Assembly (NCBI RefSeq): GCF_044324875.1
Contig: NZ_CP172185.1
Reading direction: 5' to 3' (one strand)
DNA length: 64,000 nucleotides
Source: Escherichia coli
Lineage (GTDB): Bacteria; Pseudomonadota; Gammaproteobacteria; Enterobacterales; Enterobacteriaceae
This document shows, in pieces, positions 1 to 18,401 of this stretch (its first letter is position 1; every line of letters begins with the position of its first letter). The notes under the pieces were generated by a model, which saw nothing but the letters and a program-made list of their open reading frames with translations, did not search any database and was not told where the DNA came from. The position numbers and the translations under genes are program-made.

Positions 1-830
1 CGGGAAGCCCTTTTACCGGCGAACGTACTTTACCGCCGGAAGTGATGGCCAATATCGAAGCGAAATATCATCTTAATGATCCGATCATGACACAGTATTT
101 CAGCTACCTGAAACAACTGGCGCATGGCGATTTCGGTCCATCGTTTAAATATAAAGATTATTCGGTCAACGACCTGGTTGCATCCAGTTTTCCCGTTTCT
201 GCCAAACTGGGAGCCGCAGCATTTTTCCTTGCGGTAATACTGGGTGTTAGTGCTGGCGTTATTGCAGCATTAAAACAAAACACCAAATGGGACTATACCG
301 TGATGGGGCTGGCAATGACCGGGGTTGTTATCCCCAGTTTTGTGGTTGCGCCATTATTAGTCATGATATTTGCGATCATTTTGCATTGGCTGCCGGGCGG
401 TGGCTGGAATGGTGGTGCGCTTAAATTCATGATACTGCCAATGGTGGCGTTGTCACTCGCCTATATCGCCAGTATTGCGCGTATTACCCGTGGCTCTATG
501 ATTGAAGTATTACACTCCAACTTTATTCGTACTGCCCGGGCGAAAGGGTTACCTATGCGGCGGATCATTTTACGCCACGCATTAAAACCTGCTCTGTTAC
601 CCGTGCTCTCCTATATGGGCCCTGCATTTGTCGGCATTATTACCGGTTCTATGGTCATCGAAACCATTTATGGTTTGCCGGGGATTGGGCAATTGTTCGT
701 TAATGGTGCATTGAACCGTGACTATTCCTTAGTGTTAAGCCTGACCATTCTGGTTGGCGCGTTAACCATTTTGTTTAATGCCATTGTCGATGTGCTATAT
801 GCGGTTATCGACCCGAAAATCCGTTACTGA
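1..830 (+). CDS. oppB: oligopeptide ABC transporter permease OppB (5' end cut by window edge)
   Basis: Frame is open from nt 3 to stop at 828-830; translation matches remembered OppB C-terminal two thirds; first gene of opp permease/ATPase run. Confidence 0.9.
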   Translation, partial: GSPFTGERTLPPEVMANIEAKYHLNDPIMTQYFSYLKQLAHGDFGPSFKYKDYSVNDLVASSFPVSAKLGAAAFFLAVILGVSAGVIAALKQNTKWDYTVMGLAMTGVVIPSFVVAPLLVMIFAIILHWLPGGGWNGGALKFMILPMVALSLAYIASIARITRGSMIEVLHSNFIRTARAKGLPMRRIILRHALKPALLPVLSYMGPAFVGIITGSMVIETIYGLPGIGQLFVNGALNRDYSLVLSLTILVGALTILFNAIVDVLYAVIDPKIRY

Positions 831-844
831 TACTGGAGCTCGCG

Positions 845-1753
845 ATGATGTTAAGTAAGAAAAACAGCGAGACGCTGGAAAATTTCAGTGAAAAGCTGGA
901 GGTCGAAGGGCGCAGCTTGTGGCAGGACGCACGTCGACGTTTTATGCATAACCGTGCGGCGGTTGCCAGTCTGATAGTGCTGGTGCTGATCGCGTTATTT
1001 GTCATCCTGGCACCGATGCTTTCGCAGTTTGCCTATGACGATACTGACTGGGCGATGATGTCCAGCGCCCCGGATATGGAGTCCGGTCACTACTTTGGAA
1101 CTGACTCATCCGGTCGCGATCTGCTTGTGCGCGTTGCGATTGGCGGGCGTATCTCACTCATGGTCGGTGTTGCTGCGGCACTGGTGGCAGTGGTCGTCGG
1201 GACACTTTACGGTTCGCTTTCCGGTTATCTGGGCGGTAAAGTGGATTCGGTAATGATGCGTCTGCTGGAAATCCTCAACTCCTTCCCATTCATGTTCTTC
1301 GTCATTTTGCTGGTGACCTTTTTCGGTCAAAACATCCTGCTGATTTTCGTGGCGATAGGCATGGTTTCCTGGCTGGATATGGCTCGTATTGTGCGTGGGC
1401 AAACCCTGAGTCTGAAGCGCAAAGAGTTTATTGAGGCGGCACAAGTTGGCGGTGTATCGACGTCGGGCATTGTTATTCGCCACATTGTGCCGAACGTACT
1501 CGGTGTGGTGGTGGTCTACGCATCACTTCTGGTGCCCAGCATGATCCTCTTTGAATCTTTCCTTAGCTTCCTGGGGTTGGGTACGCAAGAGCCGTTAAGC
1601 AGCTGGGGTGCATTGCTGAGTGATGGCGCGAACTCGATGGAAGTCTCTCCATGGTTATTGTTGTTCCCAGCGGGATTCCTCGTGGTGACGCTATTTTGTT
1701 TCAACTTTATCGGCGATGGCTTGCGTGATGCCCTCGACCCGAAAGATCGTTAA
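845..1753 (+). CDS. oppC: oligopeptide ABC transporter permease OppC
   Basis: 302-aa ORF, polytopic membrane protein, position between oppB and oppD. Confidence 0.93.
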   Translation: MMLSKKNSETLENFSEKLEVEGRSLWQDARRRFMHNRAAVASLIVLVLIALFVILAPMLSQFAYDDTDWAMMSSAPDMESGHYFGTDSSGRDLLVRVAIGGRISLMVGVAAALVAVVVGTLYGSLSGYLGGKVDSVMMRLLEILNSFPFMFFVILLVTFFGQNILLIFVAIGMVSWLDMARIVRGQTLSLKRKEFIEAAQVGGVSTSGIVIRHIVPNVLGVVVVYASLLVPSMILFESFLSFLGLGTQEPLSSWGALLSDGANSMEVSPWLLLFPAGFLVVTLFCFNFIGDGLRDALDPKDR

Positions 1754-1764
1754 GGAGTGCAGCC

Positions 1765-2778
1765 ATGAGCGTAATTGAAACTGCAACTGTGCCGCTCGCA
1801 CAACAACAGGCTGACGCACTGCTGAACGTGAAAGATTTGCGTGTCACCTTTAGTACCCCGGACGGCGACGTCACGGCGGTCAATGATTTGAATTTTTCCC
1901 TACGTGCCGGAGAAACGCTGGGCATTGTAGGTGAGTCTGGTTCGGGTAAATCGCAAACTGCATTTGCGTTGATGGGCCTGTTGGCTGCCAACGGACGTAT
2001 TGGCGGATCGGCAACCTTCAATGGGCGTGAAATCCTCAATTTGCCAGAGCATGAACTCAATAAACTGCGCGCTGAACAAATCTCAATGATTTTTCAGGAC
2101 CCAATGACTTCGTTGAATCCCTATATGCGTGTCGGTGAGCAGTTGATGGAAGTGCTGATGCTGCATAAGAACATGAGCAAAGCTGAGGCGTTTGAAGAGT
2201 CGGTGCGGATGCTCGATGCGGTAAAAATGCCGGAAGCACGTAAACGCATGAAAATGTACCCGCATGAATTTTCTGGTGGCATGCGTCAGCGAGTCATGAT
2301 TGCGATGGCATTGCTATGTCGACCTAAGCTGCTGATTGCGGATGAACCCACTACTGCGCTGGACGTCACCGTACAGGCGCAGATCATGACGCTATTAAAT
2401 GAACTGAAGCGGGAATTTAATACCGCCATCATTATGATCACCCACGATCTTGGCGTGGTGGCGGGGATCTGCGACAAAGTGCTGGTAATGTACGCCGGGC
2501 GCACGATGGAATATGGCAATGCGCGCGATGTCTTTTATCAACCCGTTCATCCTTATTCTATCGGTTTGCTCAACGCGGTGCCGCGTCTCGATGCGGAAGG
2601 TGAAACAATGTTGACCATCCCGGGTAATCCGCCAAACTTGCTGCGATTACCGAAAGGTTGCCCGTTCCAGCCACGTTGTCCACATGCGATGGAAATTTGT
2701 AGTAGCGCACCGCCGCTGGAAGAGTTTACGCCTGGCCGTCTGCGTGCTTGCTTTAAACCGGTGGAGGAACTGTTATGA
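1765..2778 (+). CDS. oppD: oligopeptide ABC transporter ATP-binding protein OppD
   Basis: 337 aa; Walker [12 protein letters not shown] signature FSGGMRQR, Walker B LLIADEPT; 4-nt overlap with oppF. Confidence 0.95.
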   Translation: MSVIETATVPLAQQQADALLNVKDLRVTFSTPDGDVTAVNDLNFSLRAGETLGIVGESGSGKSQTAFALMGLLAANGRIGGSATFNGREILNLPEHELNKLRAEQISMIFQDPMTSLNPYMRVGEQLMEVLMLHKNMSKAEAFEESVRMLDAVKMPEARKRMKMYPHEFSGGMRQRVMIAMALLCRPKLLIADEPTTALDVTVQAQIMTLLNELKREFNTAIIMITHDLGVVAGICDKVLVMYAGRTMEYGNARDVFYQPVHPYSIGLLNAVPRLDAEGETMLTIPGNPPNLLRLPKGCPFQPRCPHAMEICSSAPPLEEFTPGRLRACFKPVEELL

Positions 2779-3779
2779 ATGCTGTAACTGAAGGAAGAAA
2801 AGTCCTCCTTGAAATCGCCGATCTGAAAGTGCACTTTGAAATCAAAGATGGCAAACAGTGGTTCTGGCAACCGCCGAAAACGCTCAAAGCCGTCGATGGT
2901 GTCACTCTTCGCCTGTATGAAGGGGAAACATTAGGTGTGGTAGGGGAGTCGGGATGCGGTAAGTCCACCTTTGCTCGCGCCATCATCGGTTTGGTCAAGG
3001 CGACCGACGGTCATGTTGCCTGGTTAGGTAAAGAGTTGCTGGGCATGAAGCCCGATGAATGGCGTGCCGTTCGCAGTGATATTCAGATGATTTTCCAGGA
3101 TCCGTTGGCATCGCTAAACCCGCGTATGACCATCGGCGAGATTATCGCTGAACCGCTGCGTACCTATCATCCGAAAATGTCACGCCAGGAAGTTCGCGAG
3201 CGCGTGAAGGCGATGATGCTGAAAGTCGGGTTATTGCCTAACCTGATTAACCGCTATCCGCATGAGTTCTCTGGTGGGCAGTGCCAGCGTATCGGGATTG
3301 CTCGTGCTCTTATTCTTGAACCGAAGCTGATTATCTGTGATGAGCCGGTGTCGGCGCTGGACGTGTCAATTCAGGCGCAGGTGGTCAACCTGCTCCAGCA
3401 GCTGCAACGCGAGATGGGATTGTCATTAATTTTTATCGCTCACGACCTGGCCGTGGTAAAACACATTTCCGATCGTGTGCTGGTGATGTATCTCGGCCAT
3501 GCGGTAGAACTGGGGACCTATGATGAGGTCTACCACAATCCACTACATCCTTACACCAGGGCATTGATGTCGGCAGTCCCCATACCTGATCCGGATCTGG
3601 AGAAGAATAAAACCATCCAGTTACTGGAAGGGGAATTACCGTCGCCGATCAACCCGCCTTCCGGTTGTGTTTTCCGTACCCGTTGCCCGATTGCCGGTCC
3701 GGAGTGCGCCAAAACACGTCCTGTTCTGGAGGGGAGTTTCAGACACGCCGTTTCTTGCCTGAAAGTCGATCCGCTTTAA
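2775..3779 (+). CDS. oppF: oligopeptide ABC transporter ATP-binding protein OppF
   Basis: 334 aa; Walker A GESGCGKS, signature FSGGQCQR. Confidence 0.95.
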   Translation: MNAVTEGRKVLLEIADLKVHFEIKDGKQWFWQPPKTLKAVDGVTLRLYEGETLGVVGESGCGKSTFARAIIGLVKATDGHVAWLGKELLGMKPDEWRAVRSDIQMIFQDPLASLNPRMTIGEIIAEPLRTYHPKMSRQEVRERVKAMMLKVGLLPNLINRYPHEFSGGQCQRIGIARALILEPKLIICDEPVSALDVSIQAQVVNLLQQLQREMGLSLIFIAHDLAVVKHISDRVLVMYLGHAVELGTYDEVYHNPLHPYTRALMSAVPIPDPDLEKNKTIQLLEGELPSPINPPSGCVFRTRCPIAGPECAKTRPVLEGSFRHAVSCLKVDPL

Positions 3780-3831
3780 ACACAATAAGGGCTGACAGTT
3801 GTCAGCCCTTTTTCACGCCGAAAGTGATTAT

Positions 3832-5656
<1,825 letters not shown>

Positions 5657-5798
5657 AGATTAGAAATCCTTTTGAAAGCGCATTGTTATGAGTTTACGCA
5701 TATGGATTCATCTGGCAAATAAAAACGCGGGAAAAGCACTGGTCAGCGTCGGGGGCGGGGGTATAATGACCATTCTGTTATTGCATAGAGTAGTTAAC

Positions 5799-5972
5799 AT
5801 GAAGCGGAGTAGAACGGAAGTGGGGCGCTGGCGCATGCAGCGTCAGGCTAGCCGACGTAAATCGCGTTGGCTTGAGGGGCAGTCGCGCCGAAATATGCGT
5901 ATCCACAGCATCAGGAAGTGCATTCTAAACAAACAGCGTAACTCGTTATTGTTTGCGATCTACAATATCTAA
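5799..5972 (+). CDS. yciY: small arginine-rich protein (YciY-like, 57 aa)
   Basis: Internal ATG of ORF 5688-5972; translation MKRSRTEVGRWRMQ... matches my recollection of K-12 YciY; hairpin just downstream; weak SD. Confidence 0.45.
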   Translation: MKRSRTEVGRWRMQRQASRRKSRWLEGQSRRNMRIHSIRKCILNKQRNSLLFAIYNI

Positions 5973-5979
5973 ATGTACT

Positions 5980-5998
5980 GGGCACCATTGCGGTGCCC
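5980..5998. terminator. hairpin between convergent yciY and kch (GGGCACC-attgc-GGTGCCC)
   Basis: 7-bp perfect inverted repeat read directly; weak T tract. Confidence 0.4.
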
Positions 5999-6026
5999 AA
6001 TAAGTTTACTCTTCCGTCTTTAAACT

Positions 6027-7280
6027 CTATTTTTGCGCCGATTCTTTACTGTCAGCTTTCGTTTCTTGTTCATCGTTATCGCTGAAAATACCATGACCTG
6101 AGTTCAACAACATTGAAACGAGCATATCATTATTAATCTCTTCACCATTTAAAACTCGCGCCAGAATTTCGCTGCCAAACAGTTGCGGTGAGAGAATGAT
6201 ATCCGGATGTACCATCTTAATCTTATTCAGGTTTTTGCTATCACTGACGGCGAGAACTGTTTTGACATCACTGCTCATATCTTTTGCCGAGAGTACAACA
6301 AACGCGTTATCTGCATCGTTATCACTCAGCGCCAGAATGGCCCGGCAACGATCGATTCCCGCTTTCTTTAATACTGAACTGTCATTACTGTCACCGGGGA
6401 TAACATCAGCGTTATCGCCTAAGCGTTGCTCAAGTTGCTTGATATCATCTTCAGGCAAGTTGCTGATAACCGTTACGTTTTGTCCGCGTTGATTCAGTTG
6501 CAGGATCGTATTGATGGCGAGAATCGAATGTCCGCAAACAATAAAATGATCTTTACGATGCATTGTATGATTGTTTCCTTTTACAAGTTTGTTGAATCCC
6601 CCGCGGATAAGCGGACCAAAAATTGAGGTCATAGAGGTGGCAAAAACGGTAATGCCGGAAATAATGACCGAAATAGTGAACAATCGTGCTGATTCAGAAA
6701 CAGGGACAATATCGCCATAGCCGACGGTTGACATGGTTTCTATCGAAAAATAGAACGCGGTCATCAAACTTTCTATTCGCGGATTAAAACCTTCGCTTAA
6801 ATAAAGCGCACCGTAGGTGGAGTAAAACAGTAACGTCGTGAAACTAATAAATGCGAAAATTGTCCCGGCTGCGGCGCTACTGTGGGAGAAGTCTTTGCGC
6901 AGTATCAGCAAAAACACCAGCGTAAAAATGCAAAATCCAATACTAAATTTCAGCCAGGGATAAAAATGCAGGGTGTAAATTAGCGCTATCAACAACAAAA
7001 TGATACTGATTGCCCATGCGAGCTTTGCCCGGAACAGTAAGCCAATGGAGTTCAGGACAAGAAAGACGCCGAGCATAAATAGTGGGGCGTTTGCCAGCAA
7101 GGAGAGATCCAACTCTGAAAATGCTTTGATATGGAAAATATCAAGCAAATTGACCGACATACCATAGATTGTTTTAAAAATAAGCAATCCATTTAAAAAG
7201 ACGGCCAGCGCGAGAATGTCGTGCCGTAGGGTCACCCATAAATTTGTTGCTGTTTGTTTGAATGTAGCCCAGTGACTCAC
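6027..7280 (-). CDS. kch: voltage-gated K+ channel Kch
   Basis: TVGYGD selectivity filter plus RCK/TrkA-N domain; 417 aa if the GTG at 7280 (remembered K-12 start) is used, ORF extends to alternative GTG at 7298. Confidence 0.9.
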   Translation of the reverse strand: MSHWATFKQTATNLWVTLRHDILALAVFLNGLLIFKTIYGMSVNLLDIFHIKAFSELDLSLLANAPLFMLGVFLVLNSIGLLFRAKLAWAISIILLLIALIYTLHFYPWLKFSIGFCIFTLVFLLILRKDFSHSSAAAGTIFAFISFTTLLFYSTYGALYLSEGFNPRIESLMTAFYFSIETMSTVGYGDIVPVSESARLFTISVIISGITVFATSMTSIFGPLIRGGFNKLVKGNNHTMHRKDHFIVCGHSILAINTILQLNQRGQNVTVISNLPEDDIKQLEQRLGDNADVIPGDSNDSSVLKKAGIDRCRAILALSDNDADNAFVVLSAKDMSSDVKTVLAVSDSKNLNKIKMVHPDIILSPQLFGSEILARVLNGEEINNDMLVSMLLNSGHGIFSDNDEQETKADSKESAQK

Positions 7281-7537
7281 TGATACCTCTGTAACCACAA
7301 TTTTGTTTAATTATCTCAACGTGCACATTTTCTGAACATACATGCGGCACGTGAATGTGTTAAACAATAGTAGATGACTTTATCCGCAGTAATCAAAGGT
7401 TTTGAGTGAGCAACTCTGCGTCAGGAAAGGGCATTTTTCCTGAATATGCTCACATCATATAAAGAAATACAGATAAAGTTATTATCTGCTTGTGGGGGGG
7501 AATGCACTGACCGACCTATAAGGAAAGGCCAAACAAG

Positions 7538-7562
7538 AACACGGTTGCAAAAACCGTGCCCT
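7538..7562 (-). terminator. yciI intrinsic terminator
   Basis: On minus strand CACGGTT-tttgc-AACCGTG followed by TTCTTGTTT. Confidence 0.5.
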
Positions 7563-7580
7563 TAAATATTGAATCTCTAT

Positions 7581-7877
7581 TCAGAACACTTTCTTAAATG
7601 GTTTCACTGAAACGTGTTCATAGACTCCTGCCGCTACGTACGGGTCAGCATCGGCCCAGGCCTGAGCTGCTTCCAGCGATTCAAATTCAGCAATAACGGT
7701 TGAGCCAGTAAATCCCGCAGCCCCTGGATCGTTACTGTCTACCGCTGGCATTGGACCAGCTGTCAACAAACGACCTTCATCATGCAGTAACTGTAAACGT
7801 GCTAAATGTGCCGGACGAACGGAAAGGCGTTTTTCGAGGCTATCAGCTTTGTCTTGAGCGTAAATAACATACAACAC
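7581..7877 (-). CDS. yciI: YciI-like protein
   Basis: 98 aa from GTG start with AGGAG SD 4 nt upstream; matches remembered YciI. Confidence 0.85.
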
Positions 7878-8032
7878 GGGCACAACTCCTTGTTCGGGAA
7901 AGTTGTAAAGTACGTTATTTGAAAGGGCGAAGATCTGCAACGGAAAGATGATGACTTTGTTAAGACCATGCATAAAGTAAGGTCAATTACGCTAAAAATG
8001 ACATTTTCACTGATCCTGATCGTCTTGCCTTA

Positions 8033-8057
8033 TTGAATATGATTGCTATTTGCATTT
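8033..8057 (+). promoter_or_regulatory. tonB promoter region with Fur-box-like sequence
   Basis: TTGAATATGATTGCTATTTGCATTT lies 45-70 nt upstream of tonB ATG; tonB is a classical Fur target; match to the Fur consensus is partial. Confidence 0.4.
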
Positions 8058-8100
8058 AAAATCGAGGCCTGGTTTTTCTACTGAAATGATTATGACTTCA

Positions 8101-8826
8101 ATGACCCTTGATTTACCTCGCCGCTTCCCCTGGCCGACGTTACTTTCGGTCTGCATTCATGGTGCTGTTGTGGCGGGTCTGCTCTATACCTCGGTACATC
8201 AGGTTATTGAACTACCTGCGCCTGCGCAGCCAATTTCTGTCACGATGGTTGCGCCTGCGGATCTCGAACCGCCACAAGCCGTTCAGCCGCCACCGGAGCC
8301 GGTGGTAGAGCCAGAACCGGAACCTGAGCCGATCCCCGAACCGCCAAAAGAAGCACCGGTGGTCATTGAAAAGCCGAAGCCGAAGCCGAAACCTAAGCCA
8401 AAACCGAAGCCGGTGAAAAAGGTACAGGAGCAGCCAAAACGCGATGTCAAACCCGTAGAGTCGCGTCCGGCATCACCGTTTGAAAATACGGCACCCGCGC
8501 GCCCGACATCAAGTACGGCAACGGCTGCAACCAGCAAGCCGGTTACCAGTGTGGCTTCAGGACCACGCGCATTAAGCCGCAATCAGCCGCAGTATCCGGC
8601 ACGAGCACAGGCATTGCGCATTGAAGGGCAGGTTAAAGTTAAATTTGATGTCACGCCGGATGGTCGCGTGGATAACGTGCAAATCCTCTCAGCCAAGCCT
8701 GCGAACATGTTTGAGCGTGAGGTGAAAAATGCGATGCGCAGATGGCGTTATGAGCCGGGTAAGCCAGGCAGTGGGATTGTGGTGAATATCCTGTTTAAAA
8801 TTAACGGCACCACCGAAATTCAGTAA
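8101..8826 (+). CDS. tonB: energy transducer TonB
   Basis: Start [11 protein letters not shown]; (EP)n and (KP)n proline-rich linker; C-terminal TonB domain; 241 aa here versus 239 aa remembered for K-12. Confidence 0.93.
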
Positions 8827-8836
8827 GCAGAAAGTC

Positions 8837-8860
8837 AAAAGCCTCCGACCGGAGGCTTTT
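8837..8860. terminator. tonB/yciA bidirectional intrinsic terminator
   Basis: AAAAGCCTCCG-acc-GGAGGCTTTT perfect hairpin with A/T tracts on both sides between convergent genes. Confidence 0.85.
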
Positions 8861-8865
8861 GATTA

Positions 8866-9264
8866 TTACTCAACAGGTAAGGCGCGAGGTTTTCCTTCAG
8901 GATCAACCGCGACATACTTAAATAATGCTTCTGTCGCTTTATAGCGTTGCCCGATGGGTTCAGACGCGACTTTTTTCACCCACACTTCAATATTAATGCT
9001 GACCGATGTCGTCCCTTTCTGGACACAGCGTGCATAGCAGCACACCACATCGCCGACCGCAACCGGCCGTAAGAAAGTCATTCCTTCAACCCGCACAGTC
9101 ACGACGCGACCGTGGGCAATTTCTTTCGCCAGAATAGCGCCGCCAATATCCATTTGTGACATTAACCAACCACCAAAGATGTCACCATTGGCATTGGTAT
9201 CGGCGGGCATGGCTAAAGTACGTAAAACAAGATCGCCCTGAGGGACGTTATGTGTTGTAGACAT
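8866..9264 (-). CDS. yciA: acyl-CoA thioesterase YciA (hotdog fold)
   Basis: 132-aa ORF matches remembered YciA. Confidence 0.92.
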   Translation of the reverse strand: MSTTHNVPQGDLVLRTLAMPADTNANGDIFGGWLMSQMDIGGAILAKEIAHGRVVTVRVEGMTFLRPVAVGDVVCCYARCVQKGTTSVSINIEVWVKKVASEPIGQRYKATEALFKYVAVDPEGKPRALPVE

Positions 9265-9368
9265 GGTAAAACCGACTTAAAAGGAAAATCACAGGCGCGA
9301 TGCTACTATGATTTTCCTGAGGAGAACAGAGGAGATACAGCGCCAGCCCCGAAGGACTGGCAGTCTGG

Positions 9369-9908
9369 TTAGGATTTATCTTCCTGCGGCATGTGGCGGT
9401 AGATATAGATACCGCTTAACAATGTGAAGATTAAGGTAAGGGCGGTCAGGCCAAAGACTTTAAAGTTGACCCAAATATTTTGCGGCAGCCAGAATGCGAT
9501 GTAGATGTTTGCCAGACCGCAAAGGATAAAGAAAACAGCCCAGGCCAGATTCAGCTTCGACCATACCGGTTGCGGCAGCGTGAGTTCTTTACCCAGCATC
9601 CGCTGAATTAGCGGCTTTTTCATCACCCATTGGCTGACTAACAGGGCTCCCGCAAACAGAGCATAAATGACTGTAACCTTCCATTTAATAAACTCATCAT
9701 TGTGGAAGAACAGCGTCAAGCCACCGAAGACGACCACCAGAACAAAAGTGATCAGGGCCATCTTCTCAACCTTACGAAAGCGAACCCAGCTATATATAAG
9801 CACAATCGCCGTGGCGACGATCAGCGCCGCAGTAGCCGCATAGATGTCATAAATCTTGTAAAACGCGAAAAAGACAACCAGCGGTAAAAAATCAAGAAAC
9901 TGCTTCAT
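9369..9908 (-). CDS. yciB: inner membrane protein YciB (intracellular septation protein A family)
   Basis: 179-aa polytopic membrane ORF, conserved position. Confidence 0.9.
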
Positions 9909-9937
9909 TTTACGATTCCGTAATCAAATGCTTAAGG

Positions 9938-10681
9938 TTATTGGCGAATCAACATATACAGGCGGAACAGATAGATGAGCAGTACGGCTGAAATCAGGTT
10001 GCTCAAGGTGTTCGCCAGTACGGCACCAATTTCCGGGGTTAATGCGGCAAAAGAAGAGGCAAAAAGCAGCAACAGTGTCTTTGCCAGCAACCAGCTCAGT
10101 ACTGCGGGTGCCACCAGACGCATATTCGCCCAGGTCAGGCGCATGCTGCTTCGCATCGAGGCAAAAATGCCCATTTTGTCCTGTACCAACATCACCGGTG
10201 CCAGGGCCAATAAAATGGCCATGATAATTCCCGGAACGACCACCAGCATGATGCCAATCTGTACTAAAAGGGTAGTCAGAAAAATCAGAATAAATAACTT
10301 GGGCAATATCGGCGCACTGGCACCAATAGCTCGCAGCGCACTGACTCTCTGACCCGCAGACACCAGCTGGATAATTAATATTACGCCTCCGGCGAGAATG
10401 GCGTTACCGATTAATCCTGAAAAAGTGGACGCCGCTGAAGCCTGCAGCAAAATTTGTTGCTGTTCCGGTGACATATTCTGAACCAGGTCGAACAACCCAC
10501 TACTGCCGCTAACGGGCACGCCGTCATTGAGCTGCGCAAGCTGTGCATCACTGGGTGAGAAAACATGCCCTAACACCACTGTGATAAACGCACATAGCAA
10601 CGATACCAGCAGAATGGTCATAAATTGATTACGGAAGAAATTTCCGGTGTCACGGTATACGGACTGCGCCGTGATAGACAT
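9938..10681 (-). CDS. yciC: UPF0259 membrane protein YciC
   Basis: 247-aa polytopic membrane ORF, conserved position. Confidence 0.9.
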
Positions 10682-10875
10682 GCACTCTCCTTGAGTTTTA
10701 TGCAGGTGTTAATTAGCGGGCAATTGTACCCTGGTTAAGCCTCGGGTGGCAGCATCAGGTCTTGTATGGAAAAGCATATCTTTGTAAAGCGGAGGTAATT
10801 GCTGGCCTTCAGGCGTGGGCAAACCGCGGCAAGTGGCGAACGAGTTAATATTTGCGTAGCGAAAATATTTAAAAA

Positions 10876-10889
10876 TTGATTTAAATCAC
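10876..10889 (+). promoter_or_regulatory. FNR/CRP-family half-site pair TTGAT-ttaa-ATCAC upstream of ompW
   Basis: Close match to FNR consensus TTGAT-N4-ATCAA about 150 nt upstream of ompW ATG; ompW is known to be FNR-activated. Confidence 0.5.
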
Positions 10890-11037
10890 ATTAACCAGGA
10901 TTCTCAATGCAACTTCTAAATTAATCCAGATCAATAAATGGTGAATTATCATATGTAATGTGATCTATGTAGGATCATTTGTTACTCCAATGTAGGTATA
11001 TTCGTCACGTTTTTATAACCATAACGACGGAGCGGAT

Positions 11038-11676
11038 ATGAAAAAGTTAACAGTGGCGGCTTTGGCAGTAACAACTCTTCTCTCTGGCAGTGCCTATGCG
11101 CATGAAGCAGGCGAATTTTTTATGCGTGCAGGGTCTGCAACCGTACGTCCAACAGAAGGTGCTGGTGGTACGTTAGGAAGTCTGGGTGGATTCAGCGTGA
11201 CCAATAACACGCAACTGGGCCTGACGTTTACTTATATGGCGACCGATAACATTGGTGTGGAATTGCTGGCAGCGACGCCGTTCCGCCATAAAATCGGCAC
11301 CCGGGCGACCGGCGATATTGCAACCGTTCATCATCTGCCGCCAACACTGATGGCGCAGTGGTATTTTGGTGATGCCAGCAGCAAATTCCGTCCTTACGTT
11401 GGTGCAGGTATTAACTACACCACCTTCTTTGATAATGGATTTAACGATCATGGCAAAGAGGCGGGGCTTTCCGATCTCAGTCTGAAAGACTCCTGGGGAG
11501 CTGCCGGGCAGGTGGGGGTTGATTATCTGATTAACCGTGACTGGTTGGTTAACATGTCAGTCTGGTACATGGATATCGATACCACTGCCAATTATAAACT
11601 GGGCGGTGCACAGCAACACGATAGCGTACGCCTCGATCCGTGGGTGTTTATGTTCTCAGCAGGATATCGTTTTTAA
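11038..11676 (+). CDS. ompW: outer membrane protein W
   Basis: 212 aa; signal peptide MKKLTVAALAVTTLLSGSAYA; beta-barrel, C-terminal aromatic residue. Confidence 0.95.
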   Translation: MKKLTVAALAVTTLLSGSAYAHEAGEFFMRAGSATVRPTEGAGGTLGSLGGFSVTNNTQLGLTFTYMATDNIGVELLAATPFRHKIGTRATGDIATVHHLPPTLMAQWYFGDASSKFRPYVGAGINYTTFFDNGFNDHGKEAGLSDLSLKDSWGAAGQVGVDYLINRDWLVNMSVWYMDIDTTANYKLGGAQQHDSVRLDPWVFMFSAGYRF

Positions 11677-11690
11677 TTCCGCACAAAAAT

Positions 11691-11710
11691 GACCCCGTAA
11701 TTACGGGGTC
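11691..11710. terminator. ompW/yciE bidirectional terminator hairpin
   Basis: GACCCCGTAA-TTACGGGGTC perfect palindrome between convergent genes. Confidence 0.75.
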
Positions 11711-11734
11711 AATAAGGACATGGTATAAAGGGTA

Positions 11735-12241
11735 TTATTTCTTCGCTTCCACGCCATCAGTTTCAGAGCGAATTAAGAATTTCTCAGTTGTTTGCGGAAT
11801 ATGCTGAATTAGCCAGTCGGCCATGTGCTTTTCCTCATTTAAAATCGCTTCGATAATCGGAATTGAGGCTGTATCACCGGCATTTTTTGCTGCTGCTAAG
11901 AGTGAGGTATAACAGGCGATTTCAAATTGCTCGAAGACATATCCGCTAATAGAGCCTTTGACTATTTCATCAGAAGGGAATATACCACCGATTGACTGTC
12001 CAAGCGCAGCCATTTTACTCATGGAATCTTTAATGACTGAACGTGAAATGTCATTACGATCAAGAATAGTTTCCAGTTGAACAATCTGGTTTTTGGTTTC
12101 ACTAAGATGTTGTTCAATACGAGCGCGTAGTTCAGGATAATTATCTATACGACTGGCCATGGATTCAAGCATAGATTCGGCTTGCTTTTCCATTGCGTGG
12201 GCGTCACGTAACCAGTCATGATAATGTTCAATACGATTCAT
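11735..12241 (-). CDS. yciE: ferritin-like/DUF892 stress protein YciE
   Basis: 168-aa ORF matches remembered YciE. Confidence 0.9.
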   Translation of the reverse strand: MNRIEHYHDWLRDAHAMEKQAESMLESMASRIDNYPELRARIEQHLSETKNQIVQLETILDRNDISRSVIKDSMSKMAALGQSIGGIFPSDEIVKGSISGYVFEQFEIACYTSLLAAAKNAGDTASIPIIEAILNEEKHMADWLIQHIPQTTEKFLIRSETDGVEAKK

Positions 12242-12286
12242 GAAAATGTCCTCTTTATAAAATGACTAAAAGTTAAAGTTCATATT

Positions 12287-12787
12287 TCAGGCTTTATTTT
12301 CGGCTTTCTTATTTACGTTATTAAGGGCCAGATCAGTCAGTTTGATGTCTGTGGCCTTTTCTTCTTCCAAAGTTTCTTTCAGAAGCTTCGCTGCTTTACG
12401 GTAACCTAATTGTTCAGCCAGCGTCGCTAAGGTCCCGTAACTGGCGATCTCATAGTGCTCGACTTTCTGTGCAGCGGCAATTAGTGCGGCATCACGTACT
12501 TCGTTTTTCTCGGTGCTTTCGATGACCTCATTAGCTTCTTCAATGAGACCTTCCATTGCCACACATTTCATGCGCTTAATTTTCAGGTTCGATTCAGATT
12601 CCACAACTTGATCAATTCGTTCAATCTGTCCATGAGTTTCCTCGAGGTGCGCATGAAAAGCCTGACTTAATTTTTCATTTGATGTTGCTCTTGCGAGTTT
12701 TGCCAGTGCCCGGGTTAATTGTTTTTCTGCGCTGTAGGTATCTGAAAGCAGGTGAATAAATACATCTTCAATGGTCTTCATATTCAT
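12287..12787 (-). CDS. yciF: ferritin-like/DUF892 stress protein YciF
   Basis: ORF trimmed to MNMKTIEDVF (166 aa); paralogue of YciE. Confidence 0.88.
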   Translation of the reverse strand: MNMKTIEDVFIHLLSDTYSAEKQLTRALAKLARATSNEKLSQAFHAHLEETHGQIERIDQVVESESNLKIKRMKCVAMEGLIEEANEVIESTEKNEVRDAALIAAAQKVEHYEIASYGTLATLAEQLGYRKAAKLLKETLEEEKATDIKLTDLALNNVNKKAENKA

Positions 12788-12872
12788 ATTTTTCTCCAGT
12801 GAAATCACTGCGAGCCATACGGCCCGCAGATGCAATTATCTTTATCAGCTGATATTAATAATTAACGGTGAA

Positions 12873-13052
12873 TCAGGATTTTCCTGATTTATTACCACCG
12901 CTTTGTTGACCGCCTTTTTTACCCGCTTCGGATGCGCGTTGCGGATCATTTTTAAAATTACCGCCGCTATGCTGACCGCCTTTACGGCCTGCGTCGGATG
13001 CCTTCTCACGGTCTTCGGCGAAATTTCCTGAACCACCACGATGTTCGGCCAT
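12873..13052 (-). CDS. yciG: KGG-repeat general stress protein YciG
   Basis: 59 aa from ATG at 13052 with GGGAGA SD; two internal KGGQxSGGN repeats. Confidence 0.85.
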   Translation of the reverse strand: MAEHRGGSGNFAEDREKASDAGRKGGQHSGGNFKNDPQRASEAGKKGGQQSGGNKSGKS

Positions 13053-13400
13053 GTTATTTCTCCCGTTGCGTTGCATTGTTTCATTAATATGAGTGTTGTG
13101 TGTCGACACTCATTAAAATTAGTCGCTAATGAGAATTAGTCAAATTAAGCGTAACGAGAAGAAAATGGGAAAATATATTATGAGGAAAGTTCTTGATATA
13201 TTAACAATTGCCTGAGGAATAAGTGACTTAGAGAAAATTATTGATTTTACTGGTGTTATGTTGCGGGATTAATTTATTTGATTATATTACTGTTGGGCGG
13301 AAAAATGACGTAAGTTGACGTTCGACAGGGGTAAGCGAAACGGTAAAAAGATAAATATTAAATGAATTTAGGATTTTTCTGGCTTCGTTAAAGAAAGTTA

Positions 13401-13428
13401 AAATGCCGCCAGCGGAACTGGCGGCTGT
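13401..13428 (-). terminator. trp operon terminator (trp t)
   Basis: On minus strand CAGCCGCCAG-ttcc-GCTGGCGGC followed by ATTTT immediately after trpA stop. Confidence 0.85.
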
Positions 13429-13432
13429 GGGA

Positions 13433-14239
13433 TTAACTGCGCGTCGCCGCTTTCATCGGTTGTACAAAAACTTTCAGTGCCACCAGCATTTTCTCTGGCT
13501 CATTAATATGTTGCTCGATGATTTTAACAATGGCTGAACCTGAAATCGCGCCTGCAGCTCCTGCATCAATCGCTGCTTTGACCTGATCCGGGGCGGAAAT
13601 ACCAAATCCCTGCAATGGAGGTGCAGCGTTGTACTCTTTCAGCTTCGCAACCAGATGATCGAGGGGTAACGCGGCGCGGTTTTCTGCGCCGGTCACGCCC
13701 GCACGTGACAATAAATAGGTGTATCCACGACCGTAGGAGGCTATCTGGCGCAGCAAATCATCGTCGGCATTCGGCGGGCAAATAAAGATAGGTGCGACAT
13801 TATGACGCAACGCGGCCTGGCGGAAGGGAGCGGACTCTTCCACTGGCACATCGGCAACCAGCACCGAATCGACGCCGACTTTCTCGCACTGGGCATAAAA
13901 CTCATCAATGCCTTTGTTAAACACCAGGTTGGCATACATCAAAAGGCCGATGGGAATGGTCGGGTGCTTCTGGCGAATCAGTGCCAGCATCTCAAAGCAC
14001 TGTGCCGGGGTCACACCTGCCGCAAAGGCACGCAGTGTGGCGTTTTGAATCGTCGGGCCATCCGCCAGTGGGTCGGAGAAGGGGATACCTAACTCCAGCG
14101 CGTCAGCACCGGCTTCAATTAGCGTGTCGATAATTTTCAGCGACTGCTCAATGCCCGGATCACCGAGCGTGACGAAAGGAACGAATGCGCCTTCTTTGCG
14201 CTCCTTCAACTGGGCAAACAGAGATTCGTAGCGTTCCAT
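13433..14239 (-). CDS. trpA: tryptophan synthase alpha subunit
   Basis: 268 aa [12 protein letters not shown]...; 1-nt overlap with trpB. Confidence 0.97.
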
Positions 14240-15432
14240 CAGATTTCCCCTCGTGCTTTCAAAATATCGTGAACGGTGAAGATGTCTTTATCGCCGCGAC
14301 CGGAAAGGTTAACCACCAGTAGCTGCTCTTTTTCCGGGTTTTCGCGCATCATTTTCAGCGCATGGGCCAGGGCGTGGGAGGATTCTAGCGCCGGGATGAT
14401 CCCTTCGTGCAGGCACAGCGTTTTGAAGGCTTCCAGTGCTTCATCATCGGTAATTGACACGTAATCAGCGCGTCCAGTGCTGTTAAGATACGCGTGTTGT
14501 GGGCCGACAGACGGGAAATCCAGTCCGGCGGAGATGGAGTAAGATTCTTCAATCTGTCCGTCTTCGGTTTGCATCATCGGCGCTTTCATACCGAAATAGA
14601 TGCCCACGCGACCGTGTTTTAACGGTGCGCCGTGCTCGCCAGTTTCGATACCGTGACCGCCTGGTTCGACACCAATCAGGCCGACGTCGGTTTCGTTGAT
14701 AAAATCAGCAAACATGCCGATGGCATTCGAACCGCCGCCAACACAGGCGATAACCGCATCCGGCAGGCGACCTTCTCTTTCCAGAATCTGCGCTTTCGTT
14801 TCTTCGCCAATCATTCGCTGAAACTCACGCACAATGGTCGGGTAAGGATGCGGGCCAGCCGCGGTGCCCAGCATATAGTGCGCGGTTTCATAACTGCCGG
14901 ACCAGTCGCGTAGCGCCTCATTACAGGCATCTTTCAGCGTCGCGGAACCGCTATGCACCGGGATCACTTCCGCACCCATTAAGCGCATACGAAAAACGTT
15001 AGGCGACTGGCGCTCGACGTCTTTGGCACCCATATAAATGCGACATTTCAGGCCGAGCAGGGCGCTGGCAAGGGCCGACGCCACGCCATGCTGACCGGCT
15101 CCGGTTTCGGCGATGATTTCCGTTTTACCCATCCGCTTCGCCAGCAACGCCTGGCCGAGCACCTGGTTGGTTTTATGCGCGCCGCCGTGCAGCAAATCTT
15201 CGCGCTTCAGATACAGCGTGGTGTTCGTGCCAGCCGTAATGTTCTGGCATTTGGTCAGCGCGGTTGGACGCCCGGCATAGTTTTTCAGCAGGTCGTTGAA
15301 CTGAGCCTGAAATTCAGGATCTTTTTGCGCACTGACAAAAGCTTCTTCCAGCTGGCGCAGAGCAGGCATCAGGATTTGTGGCACGTACATGCCGCCAAAC
15401 TCACCAAAATAGGGGTTAAGTAATGTTGTCAT
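14239..15432 (-). CDS. trpB: tryptophan synthase beta subunit
   Basis: 397 aa; PLP-dependent fold, HGGAHKTN lysine motif. Confidence 0.97.
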
Positions 15433-15443
15433 TGTTCCTTTCC

Positions 15444-16805
15444 TTAATATGCGCGCAGCGTCTGGAAAACCGAGGCCAAAAGACGTGCGTCTTTGATGCC
15501 CGGTTGCGACTCTACAGCAGAATTAAAATCAAGTCCGGCGCAGCCGGTTTGTGCCGCTTCCACGCAGTTATCTGCGCCTAAGCCCCCCGCCAGCAGAACG
15601 TTGCAAAGCGATTGACCGTTTAACAGTGACCAGTCGAAACGTTGCCCGCTTCCACCCTGGCCGTTGTCTAAAACATATTTATCAACGTGCTGAAGCTCGC
15701 GGGCTGGCAGGGTTTCACCGACGCTTAATGCTTTCCAGATGGCAACGTTTTCAGGCAGCGCACCACGCAGCGTATCGATATACAGCTGATCTTCATTACC
15801 ATGCAGTTGCACTGCTGCCAGCGATAACACCTTAGCTTTGTCCACCACATCGGCAATATCGTGATTGCGGAACACGCCAACATACTGCAACGGTGCCGCA
15901 GCCATCACTTCCTGCGCCTGTTCAACGTTGACGCAACGCGGTGACGTCGCAACAAAAATCAACCCACCGTAAATTGCGCCCGCGTCATAAGCTGCTTTAG
16001 CATCTTGCCCACGCGTCAGGCCACATACTTTATTCTCACCCAGCAACACCCGGCGCACGGCGGCGTGCAAATCGTCATGGGCCATCAACGCCGAACCAAT
16101 CAGAAAACCGTTAGCGAAGTGGCTTAACTCGCGCACCTGAGCGTAAGTATTGATGCCGGATTCGCTGATTACCGTCACGTTGTGCCCCAGTTTCGGCGCA
16201 AGCTCGCGGGTACGGTTGAGATCAATCGACAAATCACGCAGATCGCGGTTGTTGATGCCAACGACCTTTGCCCCCAATGCAATGGCACGCTCCAGTTCCT
16301 CTTCATTACTGACTTCGGTCAGCACACCCATCTCCAGACTGTGGGCGACGGCGGCAAGCTGGCGATATTGTTCGTCATCAAGTACTGAAAGCATTAATAA
16401 GCAGGCATCGGCCTGGTAATAGCGCGCCAGATAGATCTGGTAAGGGTCGATTATGAAGTCTTTACATAAAATCGGCTGCGGGGCGATTTGACTGACGATG
16501 GGGAGGAAATCAAAGCTCCCCTGAAAATATTTCTCATCAGTCAGCACCGAAATTGCCGAAGCGTAATGTTTATAAATGGCGGCAATGCGTGCCGGATCGA
16601 AATCATCACGGATCACGCCTTTTGACGGCGACGCTTTTTTACACTCCAGAATAAACGCCGTGCGTGCGCCCTGAAGTGCATCATAAAAATGTCGCGTGCT
16701 CGGCTGAACCACATTCTGAAAACTGGCCAGCGGTTGCTGTTCTTTGCGGGTTTCTACCCAAATCGCCTTGTCTGCGACGATTTTCGCTAAAACGGTTTGC
16801 ATCAT
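15444..16805 (-). CDS. trpC: bifunctional indole-3-glycerol-phosphate synthase / phosphoribosylanthranilate isomerase
   Basis: 453-aa ORF in trp operon order. Confidence 0.97.
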
Positions 16806-18401
16806 TTACCCTCGTGCCGCCAGTGCGGTGACTCTGTCGTAAGCGGAACCACTGCGCAGTACCTCAAGAACGGTTTGCGCATTGGCTTGCAGATCTTCAT
16901 GGCCATGCAGGCGCATTAACATGGCGACATTCGCCGCGACGGCTGCTTCATGGGCGGCGTCGCCTTTACCTTGTAACAAGCGTGTTAAAATGTCACGGTT
17001 TTCTTCCGGTGTTCCGCCTGCCAGTTGCTCCTGGTGGTAGGGGGTCAGGCCAAAATCTTCAGCGGTCAATTGATAGCTCTTAATTTCGCCGTCATGCAGT
17101 TCGGCAACGATTGTCGGCGCGTGTAATGAAACTTCATCCATCCCGCCGCTGTGCACCACTGCCGCGCGTTGATACCCCAGCACGCGCAAGGTTTCGGCAA
17201 TCGGTAGCACCAGTTCCGGACTATAAACACCAATTAACGCCAGCGGCGGATGCGCCGGGTTAATCAATGGCCCCAGCACATTGAACAGGGTGCGGGTTTT
17301 CAGTTGCTGGCGAACCGGCATCGCGTGGCGGAATCCGGTGTGATATTTCGGCGCAAAGAGGAAACATACGCCTAACTCATCCAGCGCCTGGCGCGATTTA
17401 TCGGCGTTCATATCAAGATTAATACCGAATGCCGCCAGCAGATCCGACGAGCCGGATTTACTGGAGACGCTGCGGTTACCGTGTTTCGCCACTTTCAGCC
17501 CACAGGCCGCGGCGACAAACGCACTGGCGGTAGAAATATTGATGCTGTTGCTGCCGTCACCGCCAGTACCGACGATATCAGCAAACAGATAATCCGGGCG
17601 CGGGAACGGCGCTGCGTTTTCCAGTAGCGCGGTTGCTGCCCCGGCGATCTCGTTCGGGTGCTCACCGCGAATTTTCATGCTCACCAGCGCCGCCGCCAGT
17701 TGTTCCGGCTTCAGCTCGCCACGCACCACCGCTGAAAACAGCTGGTGACTTTCTTGTTGGCTAAGCGTCTGCGCCTGATACAGTTTTTCCAGAATCGGTT
17801 GCAGCGTGTTAGTCGGTTCCAGTTTCTGCTGCGCCCAGGCCAATGTTTGTTCCAGCAGGCGAGCGCCCTGGGTAGTAAGAATGGATTCCGGATGGAACTG
17901 GAATCCACAAACGCGATCTGCATCGTGACGCACCGCCATCACCATGCCATTAAAATGGGCGTTGATGGTTAAACCGGCCGGAATGTTACTGCCAACCAGC
18001 GAGTGATAACGCGCCACTGGCAGCGGGTTTGTTAATCCGGCAAACATCGCCTGACCGTCATGTTCAATGCTGGAGGCTTTACCGTGAAGAATTTCGCCCG
18101 CCTGACCGACATACCCCCCATAAGCTTCGACAATCGCCTGATGACCGAGGCAAATGCCAATAATTGGCAGCTTGCCGCGCAGGCGGGTGAGGAGTTCCGG
18201 CATACAACCGGCTTCGCTTGGCACACCGGGGCCAGGAGAAAGCATCAGCACCGGATTGCTCATTGTCGCCAGGCGTTCAATTAAGGTCTGCGCCGGAATA
18301 TGGTTGCGGTAAATCACCACGTTATGACCATTGCTGCGCAACTGATCTGCCAGGTTGTAAGTAAAAGAGTCGATATTATCGAGCAGCAGAATGTCAGCCA
18401 T
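16806..18401 (-). CDS. trpD: anthranilate synthase component II / anthranilate phosphoribosyltransferase
   Basis: 531-aa fusion of glutamine amidotransferase (GICLGHQ) and PRT domains. Confidence 0.97.

Follow-up and report, generated by a model that had tools for sequence, protein, structure and literature searches.

The tonB gene of this Escherichia coli strain encodes a protein that is longer than K-12 TonB by exactly one additional Lys-Pro unit in its proline-rich linker: alignments of both DNA and protein contain a single 6-nt indel, AAGCCG, and no other length difference. K-12 MG1655 tonB (b1252, NP_415768.1; 1311089–1311808) is 720 nt long and encodes 239 aa, the length that the first-pass annotation had given. 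That annotation had proposed one extra Lys-Pro unit arising by replication slippage, and had allowed that the K-12 repeat number might turn out to be identical and the K-12 length that it gave wrong. The pairwise alignment shows that the repeat numbers differ: K-12 has two copies of AAGCCG followed by the same four units, making six Lys-Pro units, and the gene described here has seven. We consider it very likely that the whole account is correct, i.e. that the extra AAGCCG was made by slippage, is nearly neutral, and was acquired in this strain by descent or recombination. The observation is real and was correctly interpreted. It is also ordinary, being a polymorphism of a known kind.

The tonB gene and its proline-rich linker

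TonB is anchored in the inner membrane and carries the proton motive force's energy from ExbB-ExbD to transporters in the outer membrane. Within the 64,000-nt stretch of DNA that was analyzed (“the window”), positions 8101–8826 are TonB by all of the sequence features that we tested (Table 1). The length of 241 aa, counted in the first-pass annotation from the MTLDL start, is borne out. A mechanical list of ORFs prolongs the reading frame upstream to a TTG at 8050; the RefSeq start is the ATG, and in strain 7/2 an identical 726-nt sequence is annotated as tonB with the same start and end (WP_001306569.1). The protein matches TonB_N (PF16031; 130.2 bits, Pfam cutoff 33) at residues 33–159, covering the full profile from 1 to 138, and TonB_C (PF03544; 71.9 bits, Pfam gathering cutoff 24.6) at residues 162–232. 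Residues 1–50 are identical to those of K-12 TonB, and the invariant columns of the alignment include S16, H20, L27 and S31, the face of the N-terminal signal-anchor helix that is required for coupling to ExbB/ExbD.

Table 1. Positions of tonB, its linker repeats and neighboring features in the window
Feature	Positions	Strand	Details
tonB CDS	8101–8826	+	726 nt, 241 aa plus stop; ATG at 8101 (MTLDL...), stop at 8824–8826
Glu-Pro ×4 tract, residues 70–77	8308–8331	+	GAGCCA GAACCG GAACCT GAGCCG
Related X-Pro codons flanking the Glu-Pro tract	8296–8301; 8332–8346		E66-P67; I-P-E-P-P
Lys-Pro ×7 tract, residues 91–104	8371–8412	+	AAGCCG ×3, AAACCT, AAGCCA, AAACCG, AAGCCG
Perfect AAGCCG ×3 run	8371–8388	+	Contains the extra unit; ×2 in K-12, ×1 in alleles with five Lys-Pro units
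Antisense shadow ORF	8283–8582	-	99 aa, TTG start, 27% Gly, GF/GS runs
yciI ORF	7581–7877	opposite to tonB	Upstream of tonB; from ORF list
Promoter-like site	8033–8062	+	TTGAAT-18-TAAAAT, upstream of tonB; consensus match only
GC-rich hairpin, 12-bp stem	8835–8862		Between convergent tonB and yciA; terminator-like
yciA ORF	8866–9264	convergent with tonB	Downstream of tonB; from ORF list

The gene order yciI-tonB-yciA matches that of K-12 and strain 7/2, in both of which the wider order is opp-cls-kch-yciI-tonB-yciABC-ompW-yciEFG-trp. The number of promoter-like sites such as that upstream of tonB (one found, 0.8 expected in shuffled sequence) is not significant alone; its position would fit the tonB promoter and Fur-operator region. 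The hairpin downstream of tonB was flagged by a terminator scan on the minus strand only, and presumably corresponds to the tonB/P14 terminator, described as bidirectional (Postle & Good 1985). At 10709–10798 of the window, between yciC and ompW, a YkgJ-family cysteine-cluster pseudogene is reduced to 90 nt and lacks its N-terminus; it was placed using the RefSeq annotation of strain 7/2, where the sequence is identical. In E. coli MS 115-1, a recombinase-family pseudogene stands in place of yciI, directly upstream of a tonB gene that is of K-12 type with seven Lys-Pro units, which suggests an insertion or rearrangement beside the tonB promoter region.

That TonB has an X-Pro linker was recognized decades ago. 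As read from its codons, the repetitive part of the gene encodes this proline-rich periplasmic linker, in which the Glu-Pro segment is acidic and the Lys-Pro segment basic. The first-pass annotation had described both segments as near-perfect tandem hexamers at the level of DNA, and this applies to one of them. Tandem Repeats Finder (TRF) detects the Lys-Pro tract with a period of 6 (7.0 copies, 80% matches, score 56) and also with a period of 12 (score 63). The 18-mer formed by three perfect copies of AAGCCG occurs once in the window and in none of 100 shuffled sequences; this run has the sequence of a slippage-prone core. For the Glu-Pro tract, TRF made no call at a score of 30 or more. The Glu-Pro units differ at wobble positions, such that the repeat exists in the peptide only (GARCCN ×4), and the tract is the same, with no length variation, in all 14 alleles compared. 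The repeat region had been placed at 8307–8412; the end is right, and the first tandem Glu-Pro codon begins one base later, at 8308.

Natural alleles also carry point changes within the Lys-Pro tract: KL, KS, RP, LK and SK dipeptides, an inserted T, and a change of K to N in strain PS10-3. Hence, strict alternation of Lys and Pro is not inviolable.

The repeats have a counterpart on the opposite strand. The Gly-rich antisense ORF that was reported across the linker exists, with the length, start codon and composition listed in Table 1, and it is a shadow ORF, as the first-pass annotation had supposed in calling it spurious. It is rich in Gly because, on the complementary strand, codons for Lys-Pro become Gly-Phe and those for Glu-Pro become Gly-Ser; its composition simply complements the X-Pro codons. 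That the frame is open for 94–99 codons in 14 of 14 alleles is what might be said for a real Gly-rich protein overlapping tonB, an idea to which we give almost no credence. The TTG start (8580–8582) is found in the window only, where it results from a synonymous CGC codon at Arg160, and TTA takes its place in the 13 remaining alleles. The 30 nt upstream show no evident sequence resembling a Shine-Dalgarno site, the translation has no Pfam match, and RefSeq annotates no CDS there. Moreover, shadow ORFs are frequent: 36 of the 111 ORFs of at least 90 aa in the window are likewise nested within a longer ORF on the opposite strand. Synonymous and non-synonymous SNPs discriminate weakly here, since third codon positions coincide in the tonB and antisense frames.

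Repeat number across E. coli and Shigella

The survey of repeat number that the first-pass annotation had suggested shows seven units in about 2% of genomes, with six units predominant. We compared a 100-nt probe centered on the tract (8342–8441) with 5,426 complete E. coli genomes and obtained matches in 5,423 records, representing 5,422 of the 5,426 genomes. Identity was at least 95%, corresponding to the seven-unit length, for 125 records, 90–95% for 4,734, and 80–90% for 564; only the first of these classes is counted cleanly, as the 3-nt deletion and SNPs of B2-type strains straddle the 90% boundary. At a stringent E-value, 112 records have the seven-unit tract. Seven units are thus present in ~112–125 genomes (~2% of 5,426), and nearly all others have six. 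Six units is the common state and probably also the ancestral one; the frequency and distribution of the alleles point to a change from six to seven.

The remaining length classes were taken from 60 records spread evenly over the matches, a sample that rare alleles could escape. Two have seven Lys-Pro units, 45 have six, 12 have six together with a separate 3-nt deletion, and one has five. The corresponding subject spans are 100 nt (n = 2), 94 nt (n = 45; in six of them the alignment began at query position 3 and covered 92 nt), 91 nt (n = 12) and one partial match. Sequences fetched to represent the 91-nt class, those of clone D i14 and Z247 among them, have six Lys-Pro units and lack Q109, giving a protein of 238 aa. 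In L1PEag1, the partial match, five units are combined with the same Q109 deletion, giving 236 aa. This deletion is a second length polymorphism, non-repetitive and located just past the Lys-Pro tract: the three bases at 8425–8427 (ACA, Gln109) are missing in about one-fifth of the sampled E. coli, strains of B2 type that include clone D i14 and Z247.

Synthetic probes extended the series in both directions. A probe with a single AAGCCG, equivalent to five Lys-Pro units, identified two genomes, CAU16175 and PEC240, such that at least three E. coli genomes among the 5,426 have five units. With a probe carrying four copies of AAGCCG, equivalent to eight units, no match was found among the 5,426 genomes at E ≤ 1e-34; this probe also missed the seven-unit genomes that served as an internal control, and the result therefore excludes only near-exact alleles with four copies of AAGCCG, while eight units of other composition could escape it. 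We also looked up exact protein sequences of the window TonB with the number of Lys-Pro units varied from four to nine, counting positives only because the same look-up implausibly gave K-12 TonB and the unaltered window protein as absent. Reduced to four units, the protein is the TonB of Shigella flexneri, found in 173 contigs, and versions with five units are present in E. coli and S. sonnei. At the level of DNA, the S. flexneri allele has a 12-nt deletion (AAGCCGAAACCT) within the tract.

Thirteen of 5,429 tonB matches are in records labeled as plasmids, including one seven-unit allele. Possible explanations are F-prime-like elements, chromids or replicons with a wrong label.

Origin of the seventh unit

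We fetched eight seven-unit alleles from genomes that, judged by size or host, probably belong to different lineages, and compared every variable site. The seven-unit tract occurs on at least six different tonB SNP haplotypes. In LHM10-1, VE-T9, CP52E and MS 115-1 (WP_024198338.1), tonB has no SNPs relative to K-12 and differs by the extra hexamer only. CFS3313, PS10-3, 2021CK-01784 and EC556 represent further distinct seven-unit haplotypes, with 6–13 substitutions between one another and relative to the window. Since one seven-unit haplotype equals K-12 at every other site, the expansion has recurred. Contraction provides a similar pair: the five-unit allele of L1PEag1 and the six-unit allele of Z247 have no SNPs between them. 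Single-unit gains and losses always lie in the leading perfect copies of AAGCCG, of which there are one, two or three, and the natural alleles with four, five, six and seven units differ by 6 or 12 nt, all within the tract. The locus thus has the properties of an in-frame VNTR, namely perfect head-to-tail units at the indel, alleles that differ by whole units, and the same change on several haplotypes.

Together, the perfect run, the series from four to seven units, the haplotypes and the zero-SNP pairs make replication slippage, the mechanism named in the first-pass annotation, the best explanation. On this sequence evidence, the length variant is common and recurrent, and most likely arose by slipped-strand mispairing in both directions. 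Mispairing during replication would add or remove whole in-frame AAGCCG units, and repetition of such gains and losses in E. coli and Shigella would yield the alleles with four, five, six and seven units. The same products, and the presence of the tract on several haplotypes, could also come from unequal recombination or from short-tract conversion between alleles. We also considered a phase-variable contingency locus, in which repeat number would turn expression on or off through frameshift or promoter spacing, and rejected it: the unit is 6 nt long, and all alleles seen are in frame with full-length TonB.

Could the seven-unit tract instead have arisen once, with homologous recombination or gene conversion then carrying it from lineage to lineage? 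Recombination does move this locus, as described below for the window, and a strong signal of recombination has been described for tonB in Klebsiella (PMC2656620). Nonetheless, we consider a single origin improbable. Four seven-unit genomes have no SNPs relative to K-12 across 720 nt, so transfer would have required a conversion tract confined within ~110 nt on either side of the repeat. In addition, contractions to five and four units occurred on separate backgrounds, and the tract is therefore unstable both ways.

Recurrent slippage would account for the origin of the allele in the species; the history of the copy in this strain is a separate matter. At least 40 complete genomes, most of them from human clinical isolates, have a tonB that is 100% identical to that of the window. 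Over the first 24 kb of the window, identity to the best-matching complete genomes is only 99.0%. Positions 1–16926 differ from strain 7/2 by 115 mismatches in 16.9 kb, only one of which lies between ~7.8 and 12.5 kb; divergence is ~1–2% on the side of opp-cls-kch as well as on that of yciF-trpA. The nearly identical block, ~4.7 kb long, consists of tonB-yciA-yciB-yciC-ompW. A single mismatch in the block, as against 1–2% in the flanks, indicates an ordinary recombination mosaic. The seven-unit allele was probably inherited in this strain, or imported with the ~4.7-kb segment, rather than formed de novo. The tonB-yciABC-ompW segment would be common to a group of ~100 sequenced clinical isolates.

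The same identity bears on whether the extra hexamer is an artefact of sequencing or assembly. Some assemblers miscount short tandem repeats, but nothing about the window points specifically to such an error, and we regard an artefact as extremely unlikely. The 726-nt gene is identical in those 40 or more independent complete genomes, which come from different laboratories and countries, and the seven-unit tract is found in at least 112 records. Furthermore, the reading frame is kept, and errors of one hexamer unit are atypical.

Linker length and comparison with other tonB alleles

What would one additional Lys-Pro unit mean for TonB? The Glu-Pro and Lys-Pro stretches of the linker are described as polyproline-II rods able to span the periplasm (PMC10771500; PMC9022066). 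With the standard polyproline-II rise of ~3.1 Å per residue assumed, the extra dipeptide would add ~0.6 nm. Deletion of the linker diminishes function by shortening the reach of TonB across the periplasm (PMC10666116). However, the proline-rich motif as a whole is not needed for energy transduction (PMC9022066), and function is sustained when the linker is replaced by a disordered or TolA-derived sequence (PMC10666116; PMC11658791). By analogy with the deletion experiments described in reviews, the extra unit is predicted to be neutral or close to neutral. Given that changes much larger than a single dipeptide are tolerated in the linker, the variant carries little biological weight.

An alternative explanation is that Lys-Pro copy number is under selection as a “length and charge dial”, in the manner of an in-frame contingency locus. 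Selection would then tune the reach of TonB, the hairpin or charge balance between the Glu-Pro and Lys-Pro segments, the fit to envelope geometry, or sensitivity to TonB-dependent colicins and phages, and lineages such as S. flexneri (four units) or the multidrug-resistant clinical group (seven units) would adjust TonB through recurrent slippage. Length variation is indeed recurrent and restricted to the linker, lineages are fixed at different lengths (four units in the 173 S. flexneri contigs, seven in the clinical group of ~100 genomes), and the effect of linker deletion on reach fits the idea. We nevertheless think selection very unlikely. The range is narrow, from four to seven units, with six in ~97%; the motif is dispensable and its replacements work; and hitch-hiking explains fixation within clones equally well.

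In practical terms, the result is of modest use. The tonB length differences among E. coli strains are real polymorphisms in repeat units and not errors of annotation or assembly. The tract is homoplastic and hence unsuitable for inferring phylogeny, and typing schemes based on alleles can be disturbed by it. The natural allelic series of four to seven units could be used to relate linker length to Ton function.

The 241-aa allele is already in public databases: the identical protein is RefSeq WP_001306569.1, from strain 7/2 and related clinical isolates, with 100% identity over tonB in both DNA and protein. Strain 7/2 and the window do not differ in tonB itself; they differ in the flanks outside ~7.8–12.5 kb. 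K-12 TonB is 99% identical as a protein and has the same neighbors, and its Glu-Pro segment, anchor residues and C-terminal domain are identical to those of the window. In contrast, besides the repeat number, the two genes are distinguished by 11 SNPs, of which nine are synonymous third-position changes and two are non-synonymous (in the window, A51 for T and P135 for L). Other E. coli and Shigella alleles differ in the same tract: four Lys-Pro units give 235 aa in S. flexneri, five give 237 aa, and six give 239 aa, or, with the Q109 deletion, 236 aa for five units and 238 aa for six in B2-type strains. The window allele has the highest copy number met in this survey. In-frame length polymorphism affects the same gene in another genus: natural isolates of Klebsiella pneumoniae have tonB insertions and deletions of two and four codons (PMC2656620), and 28 of 176 Klebsiella tonB alleles used in MLST have indels (PMC3299796).
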